A DNA stretch of 64,000 nucleotides from Antedon mediterranea (Eukaryota; Animalia; Echinodermata). Positions 2,470 through 31,002 of the stretch are shown here, piece by piece. The notes beneath the pieces were generated by a model. The model worked only from the letters and a program-made list of their open reading frames with translations, was not told where the DNA came from and searched no databases. Each line of letters starts with the position of its first letter. The stretch's first letter is position 1. Position numbers and translations under genes: made by a program. The stretch covers positions 17,501,365 to 17,565,364 of the forward strand of contig NC_092678.1 in the NCBI RefSeq assembly GCF_964355755.1, written 5' to 3'.

Positions 2470-3151
2470 AAAACAAATTGTATCAAGAATAAAATTCGGA
2501 ACTACTGTATTTAAGGCCATTGGTTTGTAATACGCTATTCCTTCACTTCAATATATGTAGGCTAAACATTTAAGCAATAGTACAGTGGATATGGAACTTT
2601 GACTTTACTTTTGACTGTAAAATAAAAAACGCTTATAAAAAATTGTGCTGTGTAAATTATTTTGGGTGTTTTTCGTGGTGTATTAATTATTTGATACGTA
2701 GAGATAAAAAAAGTGGATAAAAATCGAATGAAAAACACATTGCTGCGGAAACACGAATTAAGTTTATTTATTTATATTTTATTTTTATTTCACTGGTTTT
2801 GATATTTTGCAATTTTTTTGTAAGGGAGATTTGTTACGTACTTGCTACTTTTGTAATTAAAGTGTGGTCTACCAGAAACCAGTGCTCCTCACGGTTTGTC
2901 TACCTTAATAATTATTCGCATGGCATGATTATTAAGTATAATAAAAGCGTACTTTTCCCGGCCACAATATTTCTTTTTATACATAAGTTGGGGGACCCCT
3001 CAAAAAATAAACATGGATATTCATTAATAATGTTCATAAGCTACGTTAGAAATGAGCTAACAATTCGCTAAATACAAAGGTTTTCTGTCGAGCCGTCTGT
3101 ATAGTCGAGTGGATTAGGCTATGGACTTTACATGTCGATGTAGGCCTATTA

Positions 3152-6100
3152 CTCTAGTAGCTAGATCAACTTATTTCGTATGCACTTTGAGGTCCAGAGA
3201 ATTTTACTTCAGAAATTGGTTTAGGGTGGTCAAACAATCATTTTTGGCTTGGTTACATATTTTGAAAATGTGGCGAAAGGTCAAAAGGTCAGGTCAAAGG
3301 TTATAAGATCAAACACCATTATGTCCTTAAATCGCGACAACCACTGGTCACAGCGAAGTAATTTTGGTCTCAAATTGATCAGAAGGTAGACATTCATATT
3401 CAGTCTAATGAAACATTTTAGTCGAAAATGACCGAAAATGCCATTTTTGAACTTTGACCCATAAACCAGGGCATGTCTGTATCTCCGTAACTATTGGCCG
3501 TAGAGACTTGAATTTTGGCTCAAATTGTTCGAAATATACATTTAGTTATTTGTTACACATTTTGAACAATGTTACAAAAGGTCAAAAGGTAAAGGCCAGG
3601 GGTTATATGAATAAACACAAATAGGTATTTGTATCTCGGCAACCACTGGTCACAGCGAGTAAATTTTGGTCTCAAAATGTTCAGAAGCTATACATTAATA
3701 TTCAGTCTAATGAAACATTTTAGTAAAAAATGACCGGAAATGACATTTCTGACCTTTGACGTACATACCAGGGCATCTTCTTATCTCTGTAAGTACAGGT
3801 CGTAGAAACTCAAATTTAGTATCAAATTGTTAGAAATACACATATTTACATTCATTCTAACAGAAAATTTGGATAAATTAAAAGATGATCATAAATACTA
3901 TTAATTACTAATCTTTTAAATGAAAAACATATCTACCCAACTTATCATTAGACAGTAATGTTATGCAATAATTGATGCCTAATGATTTCATTATACTGTA
4001 GGAATTAAAACAAATCCTTTGCTGTTTGTAATAATTGTAGGCCTACTTTTGCTTATAATAATGCTAGAAATTATTGTTTACCCCCGAACATTTTGAGAAT
4101 GCTAGAAGTAATTTACTGTAGTTACCCGTATAAAAGCCTCGGGCATTTATTTATTCAGGGAAGGCGTTTATTTTGTTGGGTGTAATAATGGTAACATGTA
4201 TAATCAAATAAATACACCCCAGATATATATATATATATATATATAAAATATATATTATATAATAAGAATAATAACGGGATTAAACCTCATTCTATTCTGG
4301 AGGAAGTACAATCATGTAATAAAAGGTATCGGAGACCACAATAATAGACCAAGTCATTGTCATTATTACGTAACACTGTTGCATAATAGTTTTGAATGTC
4401 AACGACAAAACTTATACATATACACGTCTGTTCCCAGTGTAGATAAAAAAACAATATATATTTCTGGAGATTTATTATCAATACCACTAGAAACTTTGAC
4501 ATGTTTTAGGTACTGAATGCATTGACAATAAAAGCATCAGAAGTTTATCATGATAAAATCATACTACAACACTGTACTACAGTACACAAGGGTGTTTTCA
4601 GGAAAGCTGGACATATTGTACAATAGTAATGAAACTATGTATTGGCATTTAAAACTATGCAAAAGATTGTTGTCAAATTGTAGTTACAAACAAATAGATG
4701 ATAGAATGAAGATCCATTATGAGTGCAATCGTGTTAGGATAATGATGTGTCATTGTTTTATATCATTATACTGCAGCTGGCACCTGGAGGTGAAGATCCA
4801 TTTAATGGAATCTATCACTTTTATTTTAAAAGACAGAAACATTTCGTTAAAAAGCATAAAGAGGAAAACGAATCATGTAAAGTACCTTTTATCAGTTGAG
4901 AAACGAAATACAATTATTAATATTAGAGTATTCCTTCAAATAAACGCCACCATTCCCTCAAATAGAACACCATGTGGAATAAACATGCCACATGCATTTA
5001 CACAATAATTGTATCACGTCAACACATTTCATTAACTACCATAATCTACAATTTACCAAGCTTTTTGACATAATTTTATCACTTTTTGATATTAATTGTG
5101 CAGTATTTTTTCCCATCTAGGTGGTATTTATTTGATTATACATGTTACCATATTATACCCCAAATAAAGATGCCTCCTTTCCCCCTAAAAACCATTTTGA
5201 ACAATAAATGCCAGGGGCGTTTAATCGGATACATATGGCAAGTTACTTCTAGCATTCTGAAAAGAACTGTTGAGCTTAACGTTTCTATCAAAATGTCCTC
5301 GGGGACAGCAATAACTAGTACTTGAAATTAAAACAATTTAAAGTATCAGTTATTGCATAACATTACTGTCTAAGGATAAGTTGTGTAGATATGTTTTTTG
5401 TTTGAGACATTAGTAAGAGTATTTCTGTTCATCTTTTAACCACATTTTCTATTACAATGAATGTAAATATGTATATTTCGAACAATTTGATACCAACTTT
5501 AAGTTTCTACGACCTGTACTTTATGAGATATGAAGATGCCCTGGTATGTGAGTCAAAGGTCAGAAATGGCATTTCTTATCATTTTTGACTAAAATGCCCC
5601 ATTAGATGGAATATAAATGCATGCCTTCTGAACATTTTGAGACCAAAATTGACTTGCTGCGACCAGTTGTTGCCGAGATAAAAGTACCTTTTTTATTTGT
5701 TCAAATAACCCTTGACCTTGATCCTTTGACCTTTTGTAACCTTTTTCAAAATGTGTAACAAATAACAAAACATATATTTCGAACAATTTAAAACCAAATT
5801 CAAGTGTCTACGACCAGTAGTTACGGAGATACATACATGCCCTGGGTTGTGGGTCAAAGGTCATAAATGGCATTTCCGGTAATTTTTTACTATAATGTCC
5901 CATTAGACTGAATATAAATGTATACCTTCTGATTAATTTAAGACCAAAATTACCTCGTTGTGACAAGTGGTTGCTGAGATTTAAGGACATATTTATGTTT
6001 GATCTTATGACCTTTCACCTTGACCTTTTGACCTTTCGCCACATTTTCAAAATGTGTAACCAAGCCAAATATGATTGTTTAACCACCCTAAACCAATTTC

Positions 6101-6157
6101 TGAAGTCAAATTCTCTGGACCTCAAAGTGCATACGAAAGTTGATCTAGCTACTAGAG
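3152..6157. mobile_element. Non-autonomous foldback-type DNA transposon with about 1-kb modular TIRs
   Basis: CTCTAGTAGCTAGATCAAC at the left end is matched by GTTGATCTAGCTACTAGAG at the right end, flanked by TA/TA. The arms (about 3152-4200 and 5150-6157) are built of about 150-bp subrepeats with TGACCTTTGA and AAATTGTTCAGAA motifs. No transposase is present and the superfamily is uncertain. Confidence 0.85.
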
Positions 6158-6954
6158 TATATGGGGTTCTTTTTACTTTATAGTGAGAGAGTGATTGTTT
6201 AGAGGGTTAGGTTTAGTTAAATTTAGGAACTTAAGTAGTTCGGCTATCTTTCACATAAGGGGCCCCAACCTTTGTACGAAATAAAAATTTGCTTCCCGGC
6301 ACCTGACAAAATGTTTTTTTTTTTAAACGAACAAATTGTAAACAATTCAATTCGGAACTACTTAAGATTTTTTTATACACGGAGTATTACTATTAATACT
6401 TTGAAATATCTGTAAGCTACAAAATGAAAGCAATACTGGATTTGGGATGCGCTTCAGAAAATGACAACGTGCATTAGCGAGCAGAGATTAAAACTTTTTA
6501 ATGATAAAATATGAATTGGTAAGTTATCGAATTAAGATGTGAAGTATTGGAATAATAACAGTGATTACGGACTCAACACAAAAAGTAGTCGAAATTAGAT
6601 GATGCGCTCGGACACAAACATTTTGGGTGTATTTTTGTTGATATTTGATATTTAGCGGACTGGATTCCTTTTATTTGTGTGTGTGTGTTTTTATTTACAT
6701 TTTTGAAACAATTACACAAAACTATACACCCAACGCTATTTATTTGTTTTGTGGAAAGACGACACCTAGGTTATTTGGATTCGTTTTATTTGTGTGGTTT
6801 TTTTTTTTTTTGTTCATTTACATTTTTTTCCATGTGTTTTTTTTTCTATTTTGTTGTGTGCATTTGTTCGTATCTTTTTTGCTAGTTTTATAATTACATT
6901 GTGGTTTAGTTTTGATTTTTAGCTTTAAACGGTGATACTTAATTAGTACACATG

Positions 6955-10790: not shown

Positions 10791-13084
10791 ACCGTAAAAC
10801 TTTAAAAAGAAGCTCATGGGCTTCTTCTTTATTAGGGCTCTTGGCTGGGCTTCTTTTCGAGATTACTTTTACAAATGAGAGGGACTTCGAAATGAATTAG
10901 CATGCTGTAATTGTTGTCAATTGCCACTACTGTACAACAATACGTATTTTTTTACATTTTAAATATTTGCAGACAAGAAGAAGATACAATGAAAGTGTCA
11001 ATCCTATCTTTATTGTGTGTTGTGCCTGTGTTTGTATATACTTAACTAACCGTCACACTTCAGTGATTCTATTGTGATGGGTATCAACACAAGCACAGCA
11101 CAACCATATGGTTTATGCAAATTAGACCTAAATATTATGTATACTTGTGCAGTGTTCTTTTGTAATATGTACTTGTTGAGTAGATACAATTACAGCTTAG
11201 CCTGAAGTGGACTGAGGTTTAGAGGCTTAAAGAAGCCTAGAGTTAGAGTGAGGGCTGGATTAAAGGGTTTATTTAGAAGCATGAAGATGCTGAATGACCT
11301 ACAGTAGTAGTATAAGTCTTATGTAGCCCACAGCTCAGCTAGAAAAAGCACGTGTTTGTATTATACTCACTTTATAGGCATATCATTATATCGTTGTAAT
11401 TATGGTATAACCAATGGTTAAGTATTTCTCAAAATAAAGTTTGTTATTTATTTGTAGTAAATCGGATCGATGTATGGATTTACGGATAGAAACAGAAATA
11501 TGGAATTAAAGTCTGCAGTATTGAATATTGTTTTGTGCAGAATTACATGAAGTACGGTAGCATTTGGAAAAAACAATCATTGTACAATAAATATATGATG
11601 CTTGATTGTTGTGATAACGAAGTGTTGTAAGGTCATTAATGCAAAATCGAAAATGCAATAACAAAAACATTTAGAAATCAATAAACTGTAAAAATGATTG
11701 ATATAAACACGATTAAATTATTAGTCTTCGTCTGGAAATTTCAGAGGAAACCTTGTTTTTAAGTTTTACGAGTTGTACACAAAGCGTTATCGACAAACAG
11801 TTTATTTCCGCAACACTTACTTTGGAATTAACGGAATATGCTTTATCGCATTCTCAGTTCAGAAATCAGGAGCCATCGTCTGCAGAAGAAAAAAAACCGT
11901 AAAAACAATTATTAAAAATGGAAAGAAAATGAGTTGTTGTTTCCGATAATCATAATGCGTTTCTTTTCAAACGGGGTAGTGGGATATTCCTGAGGAAATG
12001 ATCGGCCTCGTTTGGGATTGTTACAATTGCCTACATGTTCACATGCAAACTAGGTAGGCCTTAGTGCCAAGCCGGTTTACACTGAGCATTTACACGTCAC
12101 GCGAAAAGATTCGCCAGAAGGTAGACAAAGTTCTATCGATTTTGCGAGTTGCAAATTCACCACTTTAAATTAAAATCCACTGGCGTTCAACACAGGCATG
12201 GGAACGGTGAGACGGAGGGCAATTGACCTCCCAAAACTTAAATCATGGGATGGCAAATAAAAATAGCATTTTAAAGAGATTTCTTTTCAACAACATATTC
12301 TTATAACTCCTTTCGCTCAGCAATACAAACATGATAATATAATAATAACAGCCAGACCGAAACAATGCGCTTGTCGCGAGAAAGAGATTTCTGTAAAATG
12401 CTTCTGAATTTGTAAAACTTAATGGAATTGGTATGAATGTTTTTTTACCGGTCACATTATTGTAACTGCTTAAATATAAAAACTGAAAAAAAACAAACAA
12501 TGTTTGTCTATAATATACAGAGAATATATAGAGAGAGTAGTAGATGTAGGACTTCAGGCCGTAATGTACCCCCAGGGCATATTTCATATTTCTATTGTTT
12601 AATTTCTAGGTATTGTAATGATAATTAGTGAAAGGTCATTCTTTGTACCAGACCGGAAAGGAATGTCATATCCCCAGGGTATATATTATATTTTCTATTG
12701 TTTAATTTCCTGTTATTGTAATATTAATTAGCGAAAGGTCATTCTTTGTTAGAGAAGGGGGTTTGTTATTTTGGCGGGGTTTTCGTTTTGGCCTGGGGTT
12801 ATAATTGTAGTTGGTGATGAATTTGTATTTTAAATATATTAGTGAAGGTAGTTCTTTGTTTGAGGATTGCTATTGTTATTTTTAGGCGGTTTTACCATTG
12901 CATAGGTTGCCTTTGTTTAGTATATCCTAATTTCTTTTGTTCATTGTTCTTTTTGTTTGGTACAATAGTTTTGTTTTTGATATTTTAGAGCCGTTTCTTT
13001 TTAGACATTGTAAGAAGAGGGACTGTTTTTTGTGACCTTTCCAGTTGTTTCGTCTATTTTTACGTGGAGTTACAGTATTTCGCT

Positions 13085-13636
13085 ATGTCTGGAAGTATAG
13101 ATTTTTCGTTAGGTAGCTGTGTAGATACAGTTATAATTATTAGCGATGATGAGGAGACTGTTGTTACAGGTAACGATATCGGTGATCGGTACATGCGGAC
13201 CAATGAGGGTGTACCCGCCGGTGTTGATGAAGGAGTTGAGAGGGGTAGCCGGGCTGCAAGTTGTATATTTACGTACGTAGATGAGGTGGAGAGAGAATTT
13301 TTATTGAAATTGGAATATTTAGCCAGAGAAGTGTTTGTTTCTCAAGTGTTAAACATGTGTTGGATGTTAAGTAAAGCGGCTTGTTATGGTTGCGAATTTG
13401 ATAGGCCTGGTCAAAAAGATCATGACTTCTGCTGTATAAAATCTCCAGAAGAACAGATTGATTATTTTTATCGGGAGGTTCTGGATAAAGAGTATGTTAC
13501 AGACGATACCGTGTATAGTGAGTTGAATAAGTACGAGGAATATTCATTACCACGGTATAGACATTTTGTTTACTTTCTCGTAAATACCTTGACTAATTCA
13601 GAGAACCTGTATAAGTTATTGTGTGAGGATATCTAA
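13085..13636 (+). CDS. Uncharacterised 183-aa element protein with an acidic SIM-like motif and a CxxC-x9-H-x2-C putative Zn site
   Basis: Single uninterrupted ORF; the first ATG is at 13085 (the track starts at GTG 13064). It contains VIIISDDEE and CYGCEFDRPGQKDHDFCC, and the same protein is encoded on the other arm. Confidence 0.75.
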   Translation: MSGSIDFSLGSCVDTVIIISDDEETVVTGNDIGDRYMRTNEGVPAGVDEGVERGSRAASCIFTYVDEVEREFLLKLEYLAREVFVSQVLNMCWMLSKAACYGCEFDRPGQKDHDFCCIKSPEEQIDYFYREVLDKEYVTDDTVYSELNKYEEYSLPRYRHFVYFLVNTLTNSENLYKLLCEDI

Positions 13637-13842
13637 AACGTGTTTCGTACGTGCCACGGAAAAACGATTGACCGGAAAACAAACAATTAACAATGCTTTA
13701 ATCCGCACGCGTTGTAGGGAGACAATTGACAGGAAAAACAATTAATATCGCTTTAGGCTAATTACTGTTAAAAAGCTACTTCCGTACTGAGATGTTACAT
13801 ATATATCGGACCTGGTTCAATCGCAGTTTTAAAGTACCAACG

Positions 13843-14193
13843 ATGACTACCTCCTCGAAGTTATTGGATCCTAGAAAATTTTTCAACGGTCAAACAAACG
13901 ATTTGAGTAAAGCAGCGAAGCCGTCAACAAGTAAAAAATCATTTCACTCTGCCTCAGGAATTAGCGCCATGGATTATGCAGAAATGACCGGTGGTGAACC
14001 AAAGATTCCAATAACTTCAACGAATCGGATTTTTCTGTCTGAAAAACGCCATGTAGTGGCCCAGCGCTGGGGTGAAGTTGTTTATGTATGCCTTAGAGAA
14101 TTTTATCAAAGGGAAGAAAATGGTGCCTTCAAACCTGGACCTCTAGGTATTAATTTCTGCTGTGGCAAAAACTTTTTACCAATATTGATTTAA
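13843..14193 (+). CDS. PC4/Sub1-like ssDNA-binding domain 1; N-terminal part of a frameshifted PC4-PC4-ALKBH2 fusion
   Basis: RIFLSEKRHVVAQRWGEVVYVCLREFYQREENGAFKPGPLGINF matches the PC4 pattern (IREY...KPG.KGI.L). The domain's final helix WQKLFTNID continues in the -1 frame from 14163. The start is probably ATG 13843 (TATA-like at 13800, CAGT at 13824); an upstream ATG exists at 13792. Confidence 0.8.
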   Translation: MTTSSKLLDPRKFFNGQTNDLSKAAKPSTSKKSFHSASGISAMDYAEMTGGEPKIPITSTNRIFLSEKRHVVAQRWGEVVYVCLREFYQREENGAFKPGPLGINFCCGKNFLPILI

Positions 14194-15538
14194 TTCTTCA
14201 AGCCCTAGCCGACTTGCAAAGAGACATTAACTTGGTGGAGGCAGTAAGAATCCCACTTTCGGACATACTACATGTGGTAGTTAGTAGCTGGAAAGAAGAG
14301 CAGTTTGTATGTATTCGCCATTGTTACCAGGCCGAAGAAGGAGGCGAGTTTAAACCCGGCAAAAAAGGTATAAACCTTCCAAAGAGACAGTGGTACAAGT
14401 TAATTGAACAACACGGTGAAATTCAAAAGATGATTGAAGAGGTTGATAATGATAATGCGGTTACCGTCGATGGTGGTGGTGACGAAAACGATAACGGAGG
14501 ACGTTTATTCAATTCAGAGCAACAATTGCTATCCCCTGATGGGTTATCTGTGCAAAAGATAACAGGGGAAAATTTAGATTGTGATTACCTTCAACTTCTT
14601 GATAAAGGAACAGCCGATACATTGTTTAAAAAATGTGAGGAAGAGATTGACTATTTTACCGGTGATCTTGCAAAGGTGAAAGTGTACGGAAAGTGGTTTA
14701 ATATTCCTAGAAAACAGGTTAGTTCCATTATTATTTTATCCGTGGTTTTGTATTAATGACTTGTTAATTACTTGTAGGCCTATATCGTTTCCTTTGTTTT
14801 TCTTTATTTACCGCTGGGTAGCTATATGTTTAATTTACTCTTTTACTGTAAATGATTTTATTTGGGCGTGTTCATTTACATCTTGCCAAATAAGATTCTT
14901 AAATTACTATGTAATGTATGGTTTTCCCCTCTGTAGGTTTCGTTTGGCGATTCGGGCTTAACTTACAAATATTCAGGCATTACAGTACCAGCTTTACCGT
15001 GGCCACCATTCCTGAAAGATCTCCGCGATCTTTTAAAAATGGTTACTGGACATTACTTCAATTTTGTCTTGGTCAATCGGTAAATATTCTTGTTTATTAT
15101 TTTGTTTGTTTTAATTCTATTATGCAAGTGTTATTTTACTTACATACATCCTCCCTCCCCCAATGGATAATTGGGTGGGTTTTTTTTAATCTCATGTTAA
15201 AATACTTTATTTTCTATTGTATTTTGTCGTTACTCTATAGATATGCTACTGGCAGTGATTACATTGGCGAACACAAAGATGATGAAAAAGACATGAATCA
15301 CTTTAGTCCAATCGCCTCTGTATCATTGGGGCAAACACGTATGTTTAGATTTCGACATGGTGATGCGCGAGGTAAGAGTTCCAAAAGAATAATTGAACCA
15401 GTAACTGTTGATCTTAAACACGGTACATTATTAATGATGAATTATCCCACTAATGAGTACTGGTACCATTCACTGCCTAAAAATCAATCCATCAAGCTAC
15501 CAAGAATAAATCTTACGTTTAGAGATATTAAAAGATGA
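14154..15538 (+). CDS. ALKBH2: PC4 domain 2 fused to an ALKBH2-type Fe(II)/2OG DNA dealkylase; spliced 14154-14717, 14937-15079, 15241-15538
   Basis: PC4 motif CIRHCYQ...FKPGKKGINLPKRQWYKL is followed by ENLDCDY...YFTGDLAKVKVYGKWFNIPRKQ | VSFGDSGLTYKYSG...FNFVLVNR | YATGSDYIGEHKDDE...WYHSLP...PRINLTFR. GT-AG introns 14718-14936 (phase 0) and 15080-15240 (phase 2) restore the frame. The HxD...H and RxxxxxR motifs are intact. Confidence 0.92.
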
Positions 15539-18500
15539 GAGAAATTTTACGCAAACATTAGGCCTAACAGTCTTTAATAGTGATTGCAGATCTCAAGAAC
15601 ATCAACTGTTCATGATCTGTTCTCATATAGTGTAGTAGTACCAGTTAAATTACTTTTGTGATGATATTTCTACAAATGGTTGTATTATTGTATTGAAGTT
15701 AATTCACTTAGATATAGGGCTAATTCCATTGATCGTTAATAATAATATGATTGTTTGTCATTGTGTGGATAATTATTAACTTTACGAAACAAATAGCTGT
15801 ATTATTGTATTGAAATTCACTTAGATCTATACCTAATTCCATTGATCGTTAATATTCATGTGATTGTTTCCCATTGTGTGGATAAAAATTAAATAATCTC
15901 TTAAAAGTAAATTGTATTGTATTTCTAATTGTTATAAATACATGTAACAGTTTCTTATGTTTTTAACAAGTGTGCAAGTTTTTCTTTAAAGCGTTTTAAC
16001 CGTTTAGTTAGTAATTTCAAGAGAAACAGGTACTTGAAACGGATAAATGATGTCGTAACGTAGGAAACGGACTGGTAGATTAAAAGAAACGTTATAGGCC
16101 TAATAACACTAATAATAACAAACATATATTTCGTACATGTATCGATAAGTTATCTAAATATGTGTGATTAATATTATTACAATAAAGACCATGTAGATCT
16201 ACAGTAGTTTTACTGTAAGTGGTATTGTAAATAAATTTTGAATTCAATGGTGAAAAATAACAGATGTCTGCGTATTATTTAATATTACTTTTATCATAAT
16301 TGCAAACACAGGTCGATCATAATTTGAAGGCAGAAAGACGTTTTGGTTGCCAATTGTATTTTTTTTACACTTAACACATTTTAACAGAAAAACAGAAAAG
16401 CTAGACATTCAACCGGACCCCAAACATTGAAATTTGTTTACAAACAGGTTATTTCCATTAGTTATTCTAAGGCCTACTTTTTTTTCTACATGTTTATCTT
16501 TCGACTATTTTTTAAAAACTTTTTTTATGAATCTTCCGCTGTTTCGTTAGCAATTTTACAGGCCTGTGTCTTCGCTCTGTAGCCTTTTAACGGTTCTTTG
16601 TAAATGTTCTCTTATTGATGGTTACCTATAGCTCTCTCACATCCCTTAATCTAGCACCATTTTATGAAAGATTCCTCAGTAAGGGGTTTATTACTGACGC
16701 TAGGTATCATCGACAGGGAATATTAGACAAAACATGATGTCACTATTTTTAAAAGGTTTTCTCATTCAAGAACAGCTGACGTCAATGAAGAATACGTTAC
16801 AACACGATAACTATCGGACAGCAGCAACAAACATCAACCAATCACAAATCTGAGCTACTAGTTAAATAATAAATAAACGAAACAAAGACATCATTTTCGT
16901 CTCGAAGTTATATTAACGTAAATTTTTCCTTCACAAAATCACAGGAGACGCGTTTAACGTTTCCAATTGTAAAGCAGTTTCAAATTACGTCGCATCATAC
17001 TGCTAGTACCTTACTGTAAAATATCTACCGATATATATATTTTGCTAGTCACTCATCATTTTATTACATCACATTATTCAACTCATCAGGTGTAATATCT
17101 TTACACAAATCCTTTATATCTTTACTTTTTTTTCTTACCAGCTCATAACAAACACGAATATTACTCTAAAGGATTTATACTCAATGTACCATAAACCCCC
17201 CCCCCCCCCTTTTTTTTTAAAGTCTGCATAGCGGCACGAGAAAACAATTAATAATGGGGATAAAAAGTTTGTCTTACATTGTTATACAGTAACCTGTGTT
17301 TTTCTCGGTTTACACCAACTCATTGTTTATAATTATGTATGTTAATGTCAATATAGTGTTTCTCTAGTACAGTGTATTACCTGTTTATACCCGTAAAGTT
17401 TGCAGGCCTCCATGTAGTTGGTATATTTTGTAAAAATTGTATTTATGTTTACTTTTTAAAAATCGTTTTATTTGCATTTTATCTCCTCCTGGTTAAAATG
17501 AGTGTGATGTTGCTTAAAAAGTTAACAAGTATAACCACTAAAACGGTTCATTACCTGTAGGAAATCATCAATATTGTAACATGCGGTAAACAATACAAAT
17601 TAGTTTCACAAATCATTTAAACAATAACACTAACAAATTATTGGAATTTAAGAAAATAAAGGTGTACAGATTTTATTTCGATAAAAAAAGTGTACAAAAA
17701 TAACTTTACAAAAAATTTACAGAATAAATTAACAAAAAAAAAATAATTAATTCTTATAAAGGTGTACAGTGTACATTGGCCAGACATTCTTAAAACGAGG
17801 TGTACAGCTTTTATTTAAAAAAAAGTATACAGAAATAATTTTACAAAAAGTGTATAGAATAAATTTACAAAAAAAAGTTCACACATTAAACTCATGCTTA
17901 TAAAAGTGTACATGTCGATGTGTACATGTGACGTGGCATTACCATTAAGAAACAAATACAAACCAAACACTTAACAACTAAAACAGCATAGCGATCGTTT
18001 TCGTACGAAAAACAATACCTCCAGCAGGTATATCAACTTTAGTATTTTAAGTATAGGGCCTACACGTTACAAACACACACACCCTCTTGAATTGTAGGTA
18101 CAGGCCTTTTGCCGTTCGTAATTCAAACTGTTCGGAAAATTGAAGTTAATATTCTGAGATTTATGTCTATGATTGCATTCTGCCTTCCCTCTCAGGAGCT
18201 TAGACTTGTCAACGGTCTAAAAGAGCTGTAATGCAGGATGCGAAACATAAAAGTTTATTAATAAACCGTATATTATAACGATAAAGAAACGAATGTACGA
18301 TACACCAATATAACAGTACAATAACTGATTAACTGAAGACTTGAAGTCTACTGTATTCCTACAATCATTCAAGTAGACATTGTTTGCTGAGTGTATGATA
18401 CTTTCTCCAAAGAGAATTCGAACGATGTGTTTTTTTTTTCCGGACGTGTTTCTACGGTTATCAGAACGGGTCAATAATAATTTAAACAAAAAAAAAAAAA

Positions 18501-18847
18501 AAAAAACAAAAAAAAAAAAAACAAAAAAAAAAAAAAAAAAAAAACGAACAGCCTACTAACTTCCAAACAATCAATACCTAAATAAGCTGAACCTAACCCA
18601 CTAATTAATAATCTCTTCCATACATCAAAATCGGCCGAAAATGATCTGAACATTGAAAAGTGGACACGGTCGTCTGTTCTTCTTATCTGTTGCCACGGCT
18701 TGTGACATCCTCGTTGGTGATAAAGCCATGCGGTCTACACATTTATGATGACCACATCGCATAAAATGTTCAGGGAACTTATTTTTCAACTCTCTGATAC
18801 AATGTTTAAATACAAGTGGACTGGAAACCATTTAGGAATAGGGTTTT

Positions 18848-19477
18848 CTAATAATAAAAGTTGTGTAAAACTTTAGTTATGGCCAAGGGGAATTGGTCAA
18901 GACTTGGAGTAAATGGTCAAAACCGGTGGCAAATGGTCAAGACCGAGAGAAAAATTAATGTACACCATTTTATAAGTTTATCGTCAATTATTGTGTTAAC
19001 ATTCATTTATGAATAAACCTGTATACGTATTCAATAATAAAAAAAAAGAATAACTTTCTTATGCTTAATATCATGAATAACATATCTTTAGTGGTTAAGG
19101 TAATATATTATTTCTCTGTATACTGACGTCACACATATAGATAAAGAGAGACTGTCTATTAATAAAAGTTGTGTAAAACTTTAGTTATGGTCAAGGGGAT
19201 TGGTCAAGACTTGAAGTAAATTGTCGAGACTTGGAGTAAATGGTCGAGACCGGGGGAAAGTGGTCAAGACAGGGAGAAAAATTAATGTACACAATTTTAT
19301 AAGTTTATAGTCACTTATTGTGTTAAATTTCATTTATGATTAAACCTGTATACGTATTCAATAATAAAAAATTAATATTCCTTCACTTAATATCATGAAT
19401 AACATATCTTTAGTGGTTAAGGTATTATATTATTTCTCTGTATACTGACCTCACAAATATAGATAAAGAGAGACTGT
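18848..19477. repeat. Two-copy tandem repeat (about 308 and 322 bp) in the asymmetric part of the palindrome
   Basis: Units start CTA(A/T)TAATAAAAGTTGTGTAAAACTTTAG at 18848 and 19156 and contain about 20-bp AAATGGTCAAGAC subrepeats. Confidence 0.9.
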
Positions 19478-19656
19478 AACTAAATGTTTATTAATTATTA
19501 GGGTTACAGTGAGAGTTCTATGCAAACATTAAAAGGCCAATTAACGAGCCACCCAACTTAATTAAGTACCGGTACCTAACTAACAAATGCGCTCAAACTC
19601 TATACAGGTTACAACTCTACAAAAGAGGACATTTTATTTTTAAACTAGGGTTAAAC

Positions 19657-19965
19657 ATGAAAAAGGTCAATTACTTGAACTCTGAACATTGGAAAAAGGG
19701 GTTGTGTCAATGGACACTTGAACTTTACCTCTATACAAGGACGAATGGACAGTGACAATTTACCATTAAACTCTGGTCAACCGTTTTATTGGGGGGCTCT
19801 CAAATTTCGACGAAGTCGAAAATTGAAACTCTCATGTTTTTGTGACCAGAGTTTAATGGTAAATTGTCACTGTCCATTCGTCCTTGTATAGAGGTAAAGT
19901 TCTAGTGTCCATTGACACAACCCCTTTTTCCAATGTTCAGAGTTCAAGTAATTGACCTTTTTCAT
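19657..19965. repeat. Innermost inverted repeat (123-bp arms, 63-bp loop) marking the true fold-back centre
   Basis: 19657-19779 and 19843-19965 are reverse complements with one mismatch. The loop contains TCAAATTTCGAC-GAA-GTCGAAAATTGA (19800-19826). Confidence 0.92.
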
Positions 19966-22900
19966 TGTATCAGAGAGTTGAAAAATAAGTTCCCTGAACA
20001 TTTTATGCGATGTGGTCATCATAAATGTGTAGACCGCATGGCTTTATCACCAACGAGGATGTCACAAGCCGTGGCAACAGATAAGAAGAACAGACGACCG
20101 TGTCCACTTTTCAATGTTCAGATCATTTTCGGCCGATTTTGATGTATGGAAGAGATTATTAATTAGTGGGTTAGGTTCAGCTTATTTAGGTATTGATTGT
20201 TTGGAAGTTAGTAGGCTGTTCGTTTTTTTTTTTTTGTTTTTTTTGTTTTTTTTTTTTTTTTTTTTTTTTTTTTTGGTTTTTTTTTTTAAAATTATTATTG
20301 ACCCGTTCTGATAACCGTAGAAACACGTCCGGAAAAAAAAAAACACATCGTTCGAATTCTCTTTGGAGAAAGTATCATACACTCAGCAAACAATGTCTAC
20401 TTGAATGATTGTAGGAGTACAGTAGACTTCAAGTCTTCAGTTAATCAGTTATTGTACTGTTATATTGGTGTATCGTACATTCGTTTCTTTATCGTTATAA
20501 TATACGGTTTATTAATAAACTTTTATGTTTCGCATCCTGCATTACAGCTCTTTTAGACCGTTGACAAGTCTAAGCTCCTGAGAGGGAAGGCAGAATGCAA
20601 TCATAGACATAAATCTCAGAATATTAACTTCAATTTTCCGAACAGTTTGAATTACGAACGGCAAAAGGCCTGTACCTACAATTCAAGAGGGTGTGTGTGT
20701 TTGTAACGTGTAGGCCCTATACTTAAAATACTAAAGTTGATATACCTGCTGGAGGTATTGTTTTTCGTACGAAAACGATCGCTATGCTGTTTTAGTTGTT
20801 AAGTGTTTGGTTTGTATTTGTTTCTTAATGGTAATGCCACGTCACATGTACACATCGACATGTACACTTTTATAAGCATGAGTTTAATGTGTGAACTTTT
20901 TTTTGTAAATTTATTCTATACACTTTTTGTAAAATTATTTCTGTATACTTTTTTTTAAATAAAAGCTGTACACCTCGTTTTAAGAATGTCTGGCCAATGT
21001 ACACTGTACACCTTTATAAGAATTAATTATTTTTTTTTTGTTAATTTATTCTGTAAATTTTTTGTAAAGTTATTTTTGTACACTTTTTTTATCGAAATAA
21101 AATCTGTACACCTTTATTTTCTTAAATTCCAATAATTTGTTAGTGTTATTGTTTAAATGATTTGTGAAACTAATTTGTATTGTTTACCGCATGTTACAAT
21201 ATTGATGATTTCCTACAGGTAATGAACCGTTTTAGTGGTTATACTTGTTAACTTTTTAAGCAACATCACACTCATTTTAACCAGGAGGAGATAAAATGCA
21301 AATAAACGATTTTTAAAAAGTAAACATAAATACAATTTTTACAAAATATACCAACTACATGGAGGCCTGCAAACTTTACGGGTATAAACAGGTAATAAAC
21401 TGTACTAGAGAAACACTATATCGACATTAACATACATAATTATAAACAATGAGTTGGTGTAAACCGAGAAAAACACAGGTTACTGTATAACAATGTAAGA
21501 CAAACTTTTTATCCCCATTATTAATTGTTTTCTCGTGCCGCTATGCAGACTTTAAAAAAAAAAAGGGGGGGGGGGGTTTATGGTACATTGAGTATAAATT
21601 CTTTAGAGTAATATTCGTGTTTGTTATGAGCTGGTAAGAAAAAAAGTAAAGATATAAAGGATTTGTGTAAAGATATTACACCTGATGAGTTGAATAATGT
21701 GATGTAATAAAATGATGAGTGACTAGCAAAATATATATATCGGTAGATATTTTACAGTAAGGTACTAGCAGTATGATGCGACGTAATTTGAAACTGCTTT
21801 ACAATTGGAAACGTTAAACGCGTCTCCTGTGATTTTGTGAAGGAAAAATTTACGTTAATATAACTTCGAGACGAAAATGATGTCTTTGTTTCGTTTATTT
21901 ATTATTTAACTAGTAGCTCAGATTTGTGATTGGTTGATGTTTGTTGCTGCTGTCCGATAGTTATCGTGTTGTAACGTATTCTTCATTGACGTCAGCTGTT
22001 CTTGAATGAGAAAACCTTTTAAAAATAGTGACATCATGTTTTGTCTAATATTCCCTGTCGATGATACCTAGCGTCAGTAATAAACCCCTTACTGAGGAAT
22101 CTTTCATAAAATGGTGCTAGATTAAGGGATGTGAGAGAGCTATAGGTAACCATCAATAAGAGAACATTTACAAAGAACCGTTAAAAGGCTACAGAGCGAA
22201 GACACAGGCCTGTAAAATTGCTAACGAAACAGCGGAAGATTCATAAAAAAAGTTTTTAAAAAATAGTCGAAAGATAAACATGTAGAAAAAAAAGTAGGCC
22301 TTAGAATAACTAATGGAAATAACCTGTTTGTAAACAAATTTCAATGTTTGGGGTCCGGTTGAATGTCTAGCTTTTCTGTTTTTCTGTTAAAATGTGTTAA
22401 GTGTAAAAAAAATACAATTGGCAACCAAAACGTCTTTCTGCCTTCAAATTATGATCGACCTGTGTTTGCAATTATGATAAAAGTAATATTAAATAATACG
22501 CAGACATCTGTTATTTCTCACCATTGAATTCAAAATTTATTTACAATACCACTTACAGTAAAACTACTGTAGATCTACATGGTCTTTATTGTAATAATAT
22601 TAATCACACATATTTAGATAACTTATCGATACATGTACGAAATATATGTTTGTTATTATTAGTGTTATTAGGCCTATAACGTTTCTTTTAATCTACCAGT
22701 CCGTTTCCTACGTTACGACATCATTTATCCGTTTCAAGTACCTGTTTCTCTTGAAATTACTAACTAAACGGTTAAAACGCTTTAAAGAAAAACTTGCACA
22801 CTTGTTAAAAACATAAGAAACTGTTACATGTATTTATAACAATTAGAAATACAATACAATTTACTTTTAAGAGATTATTTAATTTTTATCCACACAATGG

Positions 22901-23232
22901 GAAACAATCACATGAATATTAACGATCAATGTAATTAGGTATAGATCTAAGTGAATTTCAATACAATAATACAGCTATTTGTTTCGTAAAGTTAATAATT
23001 ATCCACACAATGACAAACAATCATATTATTATTAACGATCAATGGAATTAGCCCTATATCTAAGTGAATTAACTTCAATACAATAATACAACCATTTGTA
23101 GAAATATCATCACAAAAGTAATTTAACTGGTACTACTACACTATATGAGAACAGATCATGAACAGTTGATGTTCTTGAGATCTGCAATCACTATTAAAGA
23201 CTGTTAGGCCTAATGTTTGCGTAAAATTTCTC

Positions 23233-24617
23233 TCATCTTTTAATATCTCTAAACGTAAGATTTATTCTTGGTAGCTTGATGGATTGATTTTTAGGCAGTG
23301 AATGGTACCAGTACTCATTAGTGGGATAATTCATCATTAATAATGTACCGTGTTTAAGATCAACAGTTACTGGTTCAATTATTCTTTTGGAACTCTTACC
23401 TCGCGCATCACCATGTCGAAATCTAAACATACGTGTTTGCCCCAATGATACAGAGGCGATTGGACTAAAGTGATTCATGTCTTTTTCATCATCTTTGTGT
23501 TCGCCAATGTAATCACTGCCAGTAGCATATCTATAGAGTAACGACAAAATACAATAGAAAATAAAGTATTTTAACATGAGATTAAAAAAAACCCACCCAA
23601 TTATCCATTGGGGGAGGGAGGATGTATGTAAGTAAAATAACACTTGCATAATAGAATTAAAACAAACAAAATAATAAACAAGAATATTTACCGATTGACC
23701 AAGACAAAATTGAAGTAATGTCCTGTAACCGTTTTTAAAAGATCGCGGAGATCTTTCAGGAATGGTGGCCACGGTAAAGCTGGTACTGTATTGCCTGAAT
23801 ATTTGTAAGTTAAGCCCGAATCGCCAAACGAAACCTACAGAGGGGAAAACCATACATTACATAGTAATTTAAGAATCTTATTTGGCAAGATGTAAATGAA
23901 CACGCCCAAATAAAATCATTTACAGTAAAAGAGTAAATTAAACATATAGCTACCCAGCGGTAAATAAAGAAAAACAAAGGAAACGATATAGGCCTACAAG
24001 TAATTAACAAGTCATTAATACAAAACCACGGATAAAATAATAATGGAACTAACCTGTTTTCTAGGAATATTAAACCACTTTCCGTACACTTTCACCTTTG
24101 CAAGATCACCGGTAAAATAGTCAATCTCTTCCTCACATTTTTTAAACAATGTATCGGCTGTTCCTTTATCAAGAAGTTGAAGGTAATCACAATCTAAATT
24201 TTCCCCTGTTATCTTTTGCACAGATAACCCATCAGGGGATAGCAATTGTTGCTCTAAATTGAATAAACGTCCTCCGTTATCGTTTTCGTCACCACCACCA
24301 TCGACGGTAACCGCATTATCATTATCAACCTCTTCAATCATCTTTTGAATTTCACCGTGTTGTTCAATTAACTTGTACCACTGTCTCTTTGGAAGGTTTA
24401 TACCTTTTTTGCCGGGTTTAAACTCGCCTCCTTCTTCGGCCTGGTAACAATGGCGAATACATACAAACTGCTCTTCTTTCCAGCTACTAACTACCACATG
24501 TAGTATGTCCGAAAGTGGGATTCTTACTGCCTCCACCAAGTTAATGTCTCTTTGCAAGTCGGCTAGGGCTTGAAGAATTAAATCAATATTGGTAAAAAGT
24601 TTTTGCCACAGCAGAAA
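23233..24617 (-). CDS. ALKBH2: Mirror copy of PC4 domain 2 plus ALKBH2; exons 24617-24054, 23834-23692, 23530-23233
   Basis: Reverse complement of 14154-15538 with the same splice sites and catalytic motifs. It differs by S>L, I>N, M>T and one silent change. Confidence 0.92.
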
Positions 24618-24928
24618 TTAATACCTAGAGGTCCAGGTTTGAAGGCACCATTTTCTTCCGTTTGATAAAATTCTCTAAGGCATACATAAACAACTTCACC
24701 CCAGCGCTGGGCCACTACATGGCGTTTTTCAGACAGAAAAATCCGATTCGTTGAAGTTATTGGAATCTTTGGTTCACCACCGGTCATTTCTGCATAATCC
24801 ATGGCGCTAATTCCTGAGGCAGAGTGAAATGATTTTTTACTTGTTGACGGCTTCGCTGCTTTACTCAAATCGTTTGTTTGACCGTTGAAAAATTTTCTAG
24901 GATCCAATAACTTCGAGGAGGTAGTCAT
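24578..24928 (-). CDS. Mirror copy of PC4 domain 1 (same frameshift)
   Basis: Reverse complement of 13843-14193 with one R>T change. Confidence 0.8.
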   Translation of the reverse strand: MTTSSKLLDPRKFFNGQTNDLSKAAKPSTSKKSFHSASGISAMDYAEMTGGEPKIPITSTNRIFLSEKRHVVAQRWGEVVYVCLREFYQTEENGAFKPGPLGINFCCGKNFLPILI

Positions 24929-25134
24929 CGTTGGTACTTTAAAACTGCGATTGAACCAGGTCCGATATATATGTAACATCTCAGTACGGAAGTAGCTTTT
25001 TAACAGTAATTAGCCTAAAGCGATATTAATTGTTTTTCCTGTCAATTGTCTCCCTACAACGCGTGCGGATTAAAGCATTGTTAATTGTTTGTTTTCCGGT
25101 CAATCGTTTTTCCGTGGCACGTACGAAACACGTT

Positions 25135-25686
25135 TTAGATATCCTCACACAATAACTTATACAGGTTCTCTGAATTAGTCAAGGTATTTACGAGAAAGTA
25201 AACAAAATGTCTATACCGTGGTAATGAATATTCCTCGTACTTATTCAACTCACTATACACGGTATCGTCTGTAACATACTCTTTATCCAGAACCTCCCGA
25301 TAAAAATAATCAATCTGTTCTTCTGGAGATTTTATACAGCAGAAGTCATGATCTTTTTGACCAGGCCTATCAAATTCGCAACCATAACAAGCCGCTTTAC
25401 TTAACATCCAACACATGTTTAACACTTGAGAAACAAACACTTCTCTGGCTAAATATTCCAATTTCAATAAAAATTCTCTCTCCACCTCATCTACGTACGT
25501 AAATATACAACTTGCAGCCCGGCTACCCCTCTCAACTCCTTCATCAACACCGGCGGGTACACCCTCATTGGTCCGCATGTACCGATCACCGATATCGTTA
25601 CCTGTAACAACAGTCTCCTCATCATCGCTAATAATTATAACTGTATCTACACAGCTACCTAACGAAAAATCTATACTTCCAGACAT
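25135..25686 (-). CDS. Mirror copy of the 183-aa SIM/Cys-His protein
   Basis: The translation is identical to 13085-13636. Confidence 0.75.
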   Translation of the reverse strand: MSGSIDFSLGSCVDTVIIISDDEETVVTGNDIGDRYMRTNEGVPAGVDEGVERGSRAASCIFTYVDEVEREFLLKLEYLAREVFVSQVLNMCWMLSKAACYGCEFDRPGQKDHDFCCIKSPEEQIDYFYREVLDKEYVTDDTVYSELNKYEEYSLPRYRHFVYFLVNTLTNSENLYKLLCEDI

Positions 25687-26372
25687 AGCGAAATACTGTA
25701 ACTCCACGTAAAAATAGACGAAACAACTGGAAAGGTCACAAAAAACAGTCCCTCTTCTTACAATGTCTAAAAAGAAACGGCTCTAAAATATCAAAAACAA
25801 AACTATTGTACCAAACAAAAAGAACAATGAACAAAAGAAATTAGGATATACTAAACAAAGGCAACCTATGCAATGGTAAAACCGCCTAAAAATAACAATA
25901 GCAATCCTCAAACAAAGAACTACCTTCACTAATATATTTAAAATACAAATTCATCACCAACTACAATTATAACCCCAGGCCAAAACGAAAACCCCGCCAA
26001 AATAACAAACCCCCTTCTCTAACAAAGAATGACCTTTCGCTAATTAATATTACAATAACAGGAAATTAAACAATAGAAAATATAATATATACCCTGGGGA
26101 TATGACATTCCTTTCCGGTCTGGTACAAAGAATGACCTTTCACTAATTATTATTACAATACCTAGAAATTAAACAATAGAAATATGAAATATGCCCTGGG
26201 GGTACATTACGGCCTGAAGTCCTACATCTACTACTAGAGAGAGATGTAAAGTGTACAGCAGAATAAAATAAAAGACCAATAAAAAAGAATAAAATGTTAC
26301 TTAGTTTTGTGGATTGTCAGTGTTAAGGTAAGATAACACAGTGCTGTGTATTCATATACTACTGTATATTAC

Positions 26373-27304: not shown

Positions 27305-29284
27305 CTGCAAAAAAAAATATTTTGAAATAAAAATGAGTAAAATATTCAGTGGTATTAGGTCATGAAGACATTTCTCATTTGTATGTCTTTAGTGGTTTAC
27401 CCTGTACGTTACTAACTTGGACGTAACGCATGGACGCTGTAAGTAAATTGACAAATTACGACAAAAAAATAGGTCATCCGAACTGTTTCTTGTGATTGGT
27501 CAACTCATTTGCGTTTTGCCTACGTCATTGCGTTGCGTCCAAGTGGAAACCTAGATCTGAAGTAGGCCCTACAGTAGTACATTTTATCCAGCAATTGAGT
27601 GTTTGCTACTCGGCAAGGTAAGGCATACTTCTTGTTTTCATTTTTTTCGTCTGTTCATTTTAGATATTATATCTAAGCCTATATATATTACTATTATAAT
27701 TTAAGCTAATTTCATTACAAAACAGACATATTTAACTAAACGTTATGACGTCATACTGTTATTTAAATATGCAAATAATTATACTTATAACATTTATATC
27801 TATCCGTGCTATCACTTAGAATATATTATGAGGCTTCAAGTGGTAAATGGCGGTCATTTTGAATGTATGTTAATTAACCCAATTTCTTTTTGGTAAACTT
27901 TAGATATGATGTTCATTTGGACCATATAAAGCAAACAAAACCAAACACCATTGTTGTTGCAATTTGTTCTAATATTGACTTATTAGTCTAGTAGGAAGGA
28001 GGGGTTACCGTGCACCCGCATGATGTATTTTTTTAATGTACATTTTTGTAATCCTGAATATATGTAATTAACATTTTTTGATGTTCCCAAGACGAAATAC
28101 TGTCCCATGGGGTTTTTTGGGGGCCATTTTGGTGGCCATCTTGGATTTATCAAAATCATAAATATAGACGGTACTTGACAAAGACTGATCATAGAGGTCT
28201 GATTTTGGTCTTAAATTGTTCAGAATATGCACATTTATATGTACTATAATGAAAAGTTTTTGTTCAAAATGACAGTAAATGCCACTTTTGACCTTTGGCC
28301 TTGTTTTTACATAAGGGTCATATCTGGGTAACCCCTGGTCATAAAGATTTTATTTTTGTCTTAAATTGTTCAGAATATCCATATTTATATTCGCTTTAAT
28401 GGAACATATTTTTGAAATTTGAAGGCAAATATCATTTTTGACCTTTGACATTATTGCATAACGATTTTCGCAATAATTTAGGTTATTTTTGTATTCGACC
28501 TATATCTTGACAACGAGTGATCATAGAGGTTTGATTTTGGTCTTATATTGTTCAGAATATGCACTTTCCTATGTACTATAATGAAACATTTTCATACAAA
28601 ATGACCGGAAATACAACTTTTGACCTTTGACCTCGTTTTTACATAAGGGTCATATCTCGTAAACCAATGGTCATAACGATTTTATTTTTGTTTTAAATTG
28701 TTCGGATTATCCATATTTATATAAGATTTAATGAAACATATTTTTGAAAGTTGGCAGGAAATACAACTTTTGACCTTTTACCTTGTTTCCACCTGAGGGT
28801 CATATCTCGGTAACCCCTGGTCATAAAGACTTTATTTTTGTCATAAATTGTTCAGAATATCCAGAAGTGAGGACCTCAATTTTTACAGAATTCTTATATA
28901 GTAAGAATGTTTCTGTTTTCAAAATAAAACTATGTATATGTAGGTCTACTTAACTACTCATTCAAAACCCATTTATCAAGTTACTGCAATAGATGTTCAG
29001 TCATCGTCCACCTCAAATTCAATTTCTTGTTCATCATCTTCATACTCTTTCAACTGGTCGTTTTCTCAACTAGATCAATAAGATGGGCTGAAAGAATAGG
29101 ACTGCATGACCAGACTGTCCTGTCACCATGCCCTTGTAGTTCATTCATACTAGTGTGATATCTTGTTTTAATGATTAAATGACAGTTTGGCAAGCCCTAC
29201 ATCAGGAAATTTCCAAATAAGAGGAAGTGCCTTCATCTAACCCTCTAAGGTCAAATGAATAGAGGACATATTCCTGGTCAACTT

Positions 29285-29790
29285 CATGATATACAAATTT
29301 ATGTTTCTGTCAAGCCCCGTCAGACTGAGATTCTGACCGCCGTAAAACGTTTAGAAGCATGCACTGCTGAGATTAGGACATGGATGGGCTTAAACTTCCT
29401 CAAGCTTAATGAAAAGACCGAGGCAATCGTATTTGGAGTGGATTTGCGTGTTCAATTTAAGATCCTGCTGGTGCTCCGATGCATAAATAGTTGCGCTCTC
29501 AAATACCTCTCAGAATGATCGACAATCAATAAGAGAAAGCGAGAACTAAGATCTAGTCATCAGGTGCTACTGGACATTCAGAGGCGCAAACATAGTTGGG
29601 GAGACCGGACTTTCAGTATTGCTGGACCTACAGTAGGTTCTGGAACCACCTATCTTTGAACATTAAACAAACATCATTATTGAGCACCTTTAAGTCACTA
29701 CTCAAAACTCACATTTTCTGATATTTTTGGTAGCACCATTAGCAATGACTGTTGGAATGGCGCTATATAAATCGAATGATTGATTGATTA
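29285..29790 (+). mobile_element. 5'-truncated, internally deleted L2/CR1-group LINE (RT C-terminus and 3' tail)
   Basis: DIQIYVS...RLEACTAEIRTWMGLNFLKLNEKTEAIVFG, then RVQFKILL, LRSS...WGDRTFSIAGP...WNHL...FKSLLKTHIF*. The tail is GCGCTATATAAAT followed by (GATT)n. Confidence 0.88.
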
Positions 29791-30294
29791 GTAGCATCTT
29801 CTGACCGCTTAGTATTTATTGTATTACTGTACTGAATACTCAGTAAATGGCTGTAGACAGGCAGCCCAGATACTGTACATTTGGTTAGATGAGCTAGGTA
29901 CTGTACCAATATCTGACTATTTAAGTGTGTTAATTGGAGGTCACTTGAAGTCAATGTAAATGGAAGTCTGCCGGGTACCCCCTGCTGCGTCTATACCGGG
30001 GGACACGAAAGGTGCTAACAAATCGGCACCAATTAGATGAGAGAGATACCACCTACTTTCACCACCATGGGATGCCCATTTGCATCCTATATACCAATAT
30101 CATATCACTAAACATTTTGTCCTCTGCAATAGGCCCACCAGACACATCCCCCCCCCTCCGAGGGAGGGCCTACAAATGGTGATAGCATAGCTGAGTGAGG
30201 TACCACTCAAAATTTATGCCAAATGAACAAGTTGTGTTCATACAATACTAAATGGGTAACGACAGACTAATTGTCTGCTGCATCGCAAGTGCCA

Positions 30295-30995: not shown

Positions 30996-31002
30996 AGGCC
31001 AA

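Follow-up and report, generated by a model that had tools for sequence, protein, structure and literature searches.

The window analyzed here, a 64,000-nucleotide stretch of the genome of the crinoid Antedon mediterranea, carries a gene in which two PC4 repeats and an acidic linker are joined to an ALKBH2 dealkylase domain. The gene and its parts, with PF02229 as the PC4 profile, lie at the following positions.

13843 to 15538, plus strand: PC4-PC4-linker-ALKBH2 gene, copy 1, with a frameshift inside PC4 repeat 1
14023 to 14190, plus strand: PC4 repeat 1 (PF02229, E 9e-6 on the piece upstream of the frameshift)
14244 to 14450, plus strand: PC4 repeat 2 (PF02229, E 1.6e-13)
14451 to 14510, plus strand: acidic linker, with the fusion junction at its end, after ...NDNGG
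14511 to 14717, plus strand: start of the ALKBH2-derived coding sequence, sharing an exon with PC4 and containing the aromatic finger VYGKW
14718 to 14936, plus strand: intron 1, GT-AG, phase 0
14937 to 15079, plus strand: ALKBH2 middle exon
15080 to 15240, plus strand: intron 2, GT-AG, phase 2
15241 to 15538, plus strand: last ALKBH2 exon, holding HxD, the distal His, and RxxxxxR
23233 to 24928, minus strand: gene copy 2, with a frameshift identical to that of copy 1

The first-pass annotation of this DNA had proposed a PC4-PC4-acidic linker-ALKBH2 protein of ≈440 aa, obtained by splicing two GT-AG introns and repairing one frameshift, and this gene model stands. Pfam matches PC4 twice and 2OG-FeII_Oxy_2 once (last exon, E 1.3e-19), and all three ALKBH2-side exon translations are contained, letter for letter, in XP_071960897.1 (P0013, 242 aa, Antedon mediterranea), a record that models the window locus starting at an internal Met. 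Both repeats exceed the PF02229 gathering score; repeat 1 reaches 25.6 bits against a cut-off of 25, with a match shortened by the frameshift. The HxD/H/RxxxxxR motifs and the VYGKW finger, described earlier as intact, are present in the last exon and in the first ALKBH2 stretch, respectively. The frame switches near 14155-14170, within PC4 repeat 1. A single open, intron-free frame (14154-14756) spans PC4 repeat 2, the linker, and the first ALKBH2 exon, and the fusion is thus not an artefact of exon choice. The natural counterpart, an uninterrupted fusion of 440 aa, is XP_071948573.1 (P0008).

The palindromic carrier

The two gene copies are carried by a palindromic element, whose end motifs are named after the accessible text of PMC8097293.

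12536 to 26235: non-autonomous Maverick-type element, a near-perfect palindrome of 13,700 bp with its axis near 19811
12530 to 12535, plus strand: left flanking direct repeat AGAGAG (6 bp), a likely target-site duplication at a simple-repeat site
26236 to 26241, plus strand: right flanking direct repeat AGAGAG (6 bp)
12536 to 12541, plus strand: left end motif AGTAGT
26230 to 26235, plus strand: right end motif ACTACT
12536 to 18804, plus strand: left arm, 6.27 kb
19963 to 26235, minus strand: right arm, repeating the left arm in inverted orientation
13085 to 13636, plus strand: ORF1, 183 aa, with an acidic N-part and the Cys/His motif CYGC...HDFCC
25135 to 25686, minus strand: mirror copy of ORF1
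18805 to 19656: 852-nt stretch absent from the right half, with a 3-nt ATG microhomology at its boundaries and an internal tandem duplication
19657 to 19965: central hairpin with 123-nt arms (1 mismatch), a 63-nt centre, and a stem with a C-GAA-G loop

The arms are 99.6% identical, with 18 substitutions and 4 indel events over 6275 columns; with the element taken as one palindrome, there are 19 substitutions, four small indels, and the one 852-nt left-only stretch between its halves. Because the gene sits in a palindrome arm, it is present in two copies, and both are broken. The frameshift, being in both arms, arose before the duplication or was copied across the arms. The copies differ by 4 nonsynonymous changes and 1 synonymous change, as expected of a dead, decaying gene. 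ORF1, the only other gene found in the element, is open in both arms with zero coding differences. It has no Pfam match above the cut-off, and the Atlas gave no usable match for it; an assignment as DFF40, at 16.8 bits, fell under the cut-off and was rejected. The central hairpin, a stretch picked for its symmetry, has a stability z of -3.5, and 0 of 200 shuffles were as stable. An Rfam search over 9000-30000 returned 0 matches. Scans of viral and metagenome contigs, which reach close relatives only, found no relatives of ORF1 or of the tandem PC4, and one 16-residue match, in L001, was taken as chance.

The inverted repeat begins exactly at AGTAGT and finishes at ACTACT, with AGAGAG immediately outside each end. 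The chance per site from base composition is ≈3.5e-4 for the end motif and 1.9e-4 for the flank match, the latter figure being too low for a microsatellite; since the AGAGAG flank lies within an AG microsatellite, the flank repeat is the less diagnostic. Ends of the form (AG)3//(CT)3 are ruled out, as the right end reads ACTACT followed by AGAGAG. The commonest ends of Mavericks/Polintons (adintoviruses), in the accessible text of PMC8097293, are (AGT)2//(ACT)2 with 6-bp duplications, and the elements described there are 12.7-24.6 kb long with inverted repeats of 46-1,447 bp. The window element resembles them in its ends, its 6-bp flanking duplication (albeit in a microsatellite), and its size. 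Unlike the intact vertebrate elements, it has inverted repeats that are gene-bearing and 6.27 kb long.

Unlike Mavericks, too, the element shows no pPolB, integrase, ATPase, protease, or capsid gene; no frame in the window stays free of stops for more than 215 codons, and 28 short frames of the left half gave no Pfam match above the cut-off. With none of the core genes of an autonomous Maverick found in the window, the carrier is a non-autonomous Maverick-type derivative and not an autonomous member. The earlier proposal that a Maverick/Polinton carries the gene therefore stands in part: the Maverick-type ends and flanking duplication are there, whereas the element is a non-autonomous palindrome with no core gene and with broken gene copies. 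The second gene copy on the opposite strand and the absence of a recognizable Maverick core gene are observations beyond the first-pass annotation. The CpG observed/expected ratio of the element (0.96) is not depleted relative to its flanks (0.85 and 0.95), giving no hint of heavy methylation over a long time.

Maverick cargo capture is already known. Nematode Mavericks take up intron-bearing host genes (wasp proteases, krma kinases) near their left end (10.1101/2022.07.12.499685, accessible text), much as here. The cargo in the window is unlike that of known Mavericks in being an enzyme of DNA repair, joined in frame to what is likely a gene of the element.

Domains of the fusion protein

The uninterrupted protein P0008 matches human ABH2 with E 6.5e-72 and human ABH3 with E 4e-23. 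Its ALKBH2 part is ≈53% identical to human ALKBH2/ABH2 (PDB 3btx, 3h8o), with the same predicted fold and the catalytic residues kept. The 2OG-Fe(II) dioxygenase fold with the HxD...H and RxxxxxR motifs, together with its grouping with animal ALKBH2, nearer ABH2 than ABH3, places it in the ALKBH2 family. In an AlphaFold model built from a 46-row alignment (pLDDT 77.9, pTM 0.56), the ALKBH2 part superposes on human ABH2 with a Z of 31.6 and an rmsd of 1.1 A over 206 residues; a single-sequence model (pLDDT 32.6) was discarded. Fold searches were dominated by the ALKBH2 domain, and the PC4 pair lay outside their reach. Unlike human ALKBH2, the fusion has tandem PC4 in place of the N-terminal region, and its gene is multi-copy and mobile.

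Residue positions were counted along the P0008-ABH2 alignment from anchors in the accessible text of PMC12295762. P0008 keeps H171, D173, H236, R110, Y122, S125, E175, R248, and the R198/G204/K205 loop, and the catalytic ligands are all kept in 7 of 7 full-length models of the family described below. The changes are F102 to Tyr, F124 to Tyr, R172 to Lys, and the replacement of the RKK loop, which binds the complementary strand, by NQS. Three unfused crinoid copies read KPS, SQS, and MRA at this loop, and R plus K/R occupies its first two positions in 96 of 111 other homologs (6 are without the anchor and 9 were not printed). Because the loss of RKK is common to the unfused crinoid copies, it is not an adaptation of the fusion, and it gives only a hint that strand preference may have shifted.

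Such a shift matters for the proposal, made in the first-pass annotation, that the PC4 pair tethers the dealkylase to a displaced strand. Human ABH2 is more efficient on dsDNA, and AlkB and ABH3 prefer ssDNA (PMC12295762, accessible text); tethering to the displaced strand would thus require a change in preference. The same annotation raised an anti-methylation role. ALKB2 has evolved together with DNMT1/3, whose 3mC by-product it repairs (PMC9246332, in the portion available), and beyond that repair nothing supports such a role.

A virus-like element with an AlkB dealkylase recalls the AlkB proteins encoded by giant DNA viruses and by the replicases of plant and invertebrate RNA viruses. The BFVD returned many viral AlkB matches, with 13-29% identity among the 50 matches listed. 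Unlike these distant proteins, the fusion is 79-81% identical to host paralogues, has introns, and is joined to PC4.

The two PC4 repeats share ≈48% identity (29/60). In PC4, the residues that contact ssDNA are R70, F77, R86, W89, R100, and K101 (PMC4350104, accessible text). Both repeats have Trp at position 77 and Tyr at 89 and keep R86, so that the aromatics at the F77/W89 positions and R86 are retained as in PC4/Sub1 (PF02229; PDB 1pcf, 4usg, 4bhm). Unlike PC4/Sub1, the protein has two repeats in one chain, each without a different set of basic contacts: R100/K101 in repeat 1 and R70 in repeat 2.

The earlier idea of a single-chain PC4 pseudo-dimer agrees with structure prediction. Folded as separate chains, repeats 1 and 2 scored 0.75 against 0.00 for the best control, with contacts agreeing to at least 94% and a partner pLDDT of at least 85, a prediction in which the two repeats associate as in the PC4 dimer. 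The pairing mark is reached by 51 of 78 solved pairs and 2 of 108 mismatched pairs, and the pass may stem from likeness to solved PC4 dimers. In the full-length model, about six residues lie between the helix of repeat 1 and the first strand of repeat 2; a domain-swapped dimer could form as an alternative to intrachain pairing.

Family, origin, and constraint

Among longer proteins, the second gene piece matched 4 clusters, all from A. mediterranea. The family consists of 17 RefSeq proteins (16 from the clusters plus P0020) on 7 chromosome-sized sequences of 22-41 Mb, and some pairs among the 17 may be isoforms of a single locus. Seven of them (P0005, P0008, P0010, P0011, P0014, P0015, and P0017) combine a complete ALKBH2 with two unbroken PC4 repeats, and the models of the other 10 are truncated or internally deleted. 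Unfused ALKBH2 paralogues are still present in A. mediterranea as a 268-aa pair and a 338-aa gene, so that the many fusion copies are distinct from the unfused host genes and the window locus is not the only ALKBH2 of the species. Neither of the two results that the first-pass annotation named as refuting its proposal was obtained.

Both domains occurred in 14 of 283 proteins compared, namely one window piece and 13 A. mediterranea records. No PC4-ALKBH2 fusion was found in another species among these 283 proteins, a set that includes the 120 best of 493 matches from one search and the 150 best of 7,989 from another and so could miss a distant fusion. The first-pass remark that this architecture is unfamiliar from cellular genes thus agrees with the other species' proteins compared. 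Mytilus P0021 was considered and rejected as a fusion; its high score comes only from an internally duplicated ALKBH2 C-part, and it is without PC4.

In public sequencing runs, contigs from organism A (two studies) and organism B cover 30 of 30 bins of 12200-18800. An X5 contig from these runs crosses the fusion junction (14241-14640) with 0 differences, and no organism-B contig across the junction was found among the 32 pieces listed. The runs listed as containing the sequence included none of RNA, and there were 0 intron-skipping joints at the GT-AG ends among the 15 joints listed of 26; both results are uninformative on expression.

Neither a PC4-ALKBH2 fusion nor ALKBH2 in Mavericks was found in literature listings of 11-30 entries each, drawn from a collection without most subscription papers or Repbase; supplements may list such accessory genes or non-autonomous Polintons. 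The term "PC4" is absent from the accessible text of PMC8097293 and PMC10748475, and "AlkB," "SSB," and "coactivator" are absent from PMC8502044. The "pc4" in the accessible part of PMC11662393 is a cluster label, not the protein.

A midpoint-rooted tree was built from 37 ALKBH2 domains. In it, the 11 sequences of the family group together as a single clade (100/98), whose closest relative is the unfused 268-aa pair of A. mediterranea (94/84). Next to branch off is the 338-aa gene of A. mediterranea (92/92), then Anneissia japonica, and all lie inside a crinoid clade (100/100). The phylogeny against the host's own ALKBH2, a check suggested in the first-pass annotation, thus shows the family as a separate clade nested within crinoid ALKBH2, and this nesting identifies the donor as a host gene of the Antedon lineage.

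The PC4 side can be followed in Anneissia japonica, which has an unfused tandem PC4 (P0230, from a 1-kb contig). Likeness to P0230 ends at "DNDNG," the linker end, and likeness to host ALKBH2 starts there; P0020 also diverges at the linker end. The nesting of the ALKBH2 domain among crinoid host genes, together with the unfused tandem PC4 of Anneissia, marks the fusion as young and lineage-limited. The ALKBH2 part was likely captured recently from a crinoid host and is not an ancient viral module.

One X1 contig aligns on either side of intron 1 and carries 174 other letters in between, as would be expected of a paralogue whose intron sits at the same position. From this pattern and from the kept introns, capture probably took place at the DNA level. 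We infer that the tandem PC4 was originally a gene of the element. Among the Atlas entries, a viral PC4 cluster carries the label Preplasmiviricota on one record (score 0.85), which is a lead only, and tandem PC4-like models there also come from green algae, nematodes, and bacteria. Overall, the domain fusion is real, young, and limited to one lineage, and a Maverick-type element has spread it.

Two comparisons bear on whether intact copies are constrained. One of the 11 changes on the fused lineage falls within conserved columns (83 of 204 columns, at least 90% conserved), where 4.5 were expected (P 0.024). A permutation test on mean conservation gave P 0.026 for the fused stem, P 0.034 for the 338-aa host gene, and P 0.25 for the 268-aa paralogue; the stem-branch constraint may partly date from the time as a host gene, before capture. 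In the second comparison, two subfamilies differ at about half of their N-terminal sites, and their differences fall on 20-24 of 144 PC4-region sites, 4 of 21 sites in the host-derived N-arm, and 2-5 of 195 core sites (Fisher P 1e-4 or less). The diverged N-arm suggests, on small numbers, that the fusion is older than the subfamily split and that the core would then have been held by selection. Low core divergence could alternatively come from recombination, with a crossover near residue 245, or from conversion. Taken together, the alignments offer moderate evidence that the intact copies are under constraint.

Readings of the fusion and its meaning

The reading we favor, with a probability of roughly 0.45, is that the fusion is a selected, ssDNA-tethered dealkylase that serves the element family, both copies in the window being frameshifted. 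A Maverick-type element in the Antedon lineage would have captured a host ALKBH2 in frame behind its tandem-PC4 gene. In intact copies, the paired PC4 repeats would hold single-stranded DNA, and the ALKBH2 part would clear 1-methyladenine and 3-methylcytosine lesions, the most plausible substrate being the replicating DNA of the element. Mavericks/Polintons are modeled to replicate by protein-primed strand displacement, and the target strands would most plausibly be those displaced in this process. The palindrome would be a fold-back copy of a left-end fragment, integrated afterwards by enzymes that were presumably supplied in trans.

The fused enzyme may instead be passenger cargo, a piece of host ALKBH2 that landed in frame by luck, spread as the element was copied, and is useless to it. 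We regard this as a serious possibility, if a somewhat doubtful one: a sense-strand junction has a chance of ≈1 in 3 of landing in frame, both window copies are broken and share one insertion, the arms decay neutrally, 10 of the 17 RefSeq models are broken as well, and the fusion is confined to one named species among the proteins compared. The acquisition of intron-bearing genes near the left end in nematode Mavericks (10.1101/2022.07.12.499685, accessible text) fits it too. Such a passenger would not, however, be expected to diverge in its host-derived N-arm (4/21) like PC4 and not in its core (2-5/195), to gather stem changes away from conserved columns, or to keep every catalytic ligand in all seven full-length models.

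These signs of constraint would apply equally if the fusion had been selected for work on integrated or host DNA, where it would remove DNMT-made 3mC or alkyl lesions in transcription bubbles and so amplify the host repair dose. The co-evolution of ALKB2 with DNMT1/3 and its repair of 3mC (PMC9246332, available portion) and the kept R198/G204/K205 complementary-strand loop speak for such a role, which we nevertheless hold to be improbable, given an element that is not CpG-depleted relative to its flanks, copies whose scatter and frequent breakage do not resemble a domesticated gene, and unfused host paralogues that persist. It is less probable still, and indeed very improbable, that the carrier is no Maverick at all but an inverted duplication of host DNA or an inverted-repeat transposon of another kind, with the fusion as a lineage-specific cellular family. 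The lack of core genes, an ORF1 without a family, the tandem PC4 proteins of green algae, nematodes, and bacteria, and a flanking repeat that is a simple AG run are compatible with that view; an inverted repeat bounded exactly by AGTAGT/ACTACT with a 6-bp direct repeat outside, and copies on 7 chromosome-sized sequences, argue against it.

The favored reading of a selected, tethered dealkylase can be carried further, to an account that we consider unlikely as a whole. An active feather-star Maverick family would recently have built its own single-chain repair enzyme by joining a host ALKBH2 that had already lost the RKK dsDNA loop to its PC4-type ssDNA-binding protein, the displaced strand would be both coated and dealkylated in the course of protein-primed replication, and fold-back palindromes, akin to copy-back defective viral genomes, would spread the gene at double dose.

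If the fusion is functional, it would be a datable case of a virus-like transposon making a new enzyme from a host repair gene and its own DNA-binding gene. PC4 would then be indicated as the ssDNA-binding protein of animal Mavericks, and alkylation damage would be shown to limit their replication. The protein also makes it possible to ask, in a natural case, whether ALKBH2 can be redirected from duplex to single-stranded DNA by an ssDNA tether, and a gene-bearing palindrome that has kept its ends suggests that non-autonomous Mavericks can arise by fold-back. If the fusion is a passenger, it would be a clear case of host-gene amplification by a Maverick derivative, one that inflates the ALKBH2 and PC4 annotation counts in the genome.

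Architecture and ends of the palindromic element

A single palindrome makes up the entire element at 12536-26235, whose axis holds a small C-GAA-G hairpin. Together with an 852-nt stretch that is confined to the left half, the palindromy and the axial hairpin suggest that the element has a fold-back origin. Just inside each of its ends lies a subterminal repeat:

12567-12749: direct repeat of ~80 bp, 86% identity

ORF1 (13085-13636, plus strand), which precedes the gene that fuses two PC4 domains to ALKBH2, is without an assigned family; its CxGC...H..C motif is similar to that of some small proteins from invertebrate Mavericks. A probable splice site lies upstream of the fusion gene:

13812-13842: probable splice acceptor, with its CAG ending at 13826

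The longer RefSeq models of the fusion have an N-terminus that is extended by ~34 residues, and a tblastn search of the window found no exon for these extra residues.

Other repeats in the window

Repeats and a short reading frame elsewhere in the window
3150-6159 and 27991-32675: inverted-repeat elements made of ~300-bp or 150-bp subrepeats
31081-31632 (minus strand): 183-codon frame
32800-64000: multi-kb direct repeats nested into an array whose shared blocks occur 5-9 times
51577-53213: 22-bp tandem array, bordered on each side by a block of C-rich tandem repeats (15/16 bp), the two blocks being inverted relative to each other

The inverted-repeat elements possibly represent one non-autonomous TIR family. 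The 183-codon frame has no Pfam match but resembles a degenerate C-terminus from a reverse transcriptase of the Penelope type.

Paired copies and crinoid ALKBH2 evolution

For PC4 genes in other animals, one report describes five in the bay scallop, regarded there as host genes (PMC9223095).

In A. mediterranea, near-identical RefSeq models are frequently paired on one chromosome-sized sequence, several of them with adjacent accession numbers; examples are P0005/P0009, P0012/P0017, P0010/P0016, P0011/P0014, and the unfused 268-aa ALKBH2 pair P0022/P0136. Further copies, even those of the unfused protein, may also reside on two-armed elements, or the pairs may instead be isoforms.

The RKK loop, through which ALKBH2 binds the complementary strand of dsDNA, is missing from all five crinoid proteins inspected, both unfused (P0136, P0137, and P0138) and fused (P0008 and P0010); most other animals keep it. 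The crinoid stem branch of ALKBH2 is long (0.56). Among the changes particular to P0136/P0022, 5 of 12 fall in conserved columns versus 4.9 expected, which indicates no avoidance of such positions. This unfused ALKBH2 of A. mediterranea may be a relaxed duplicate.
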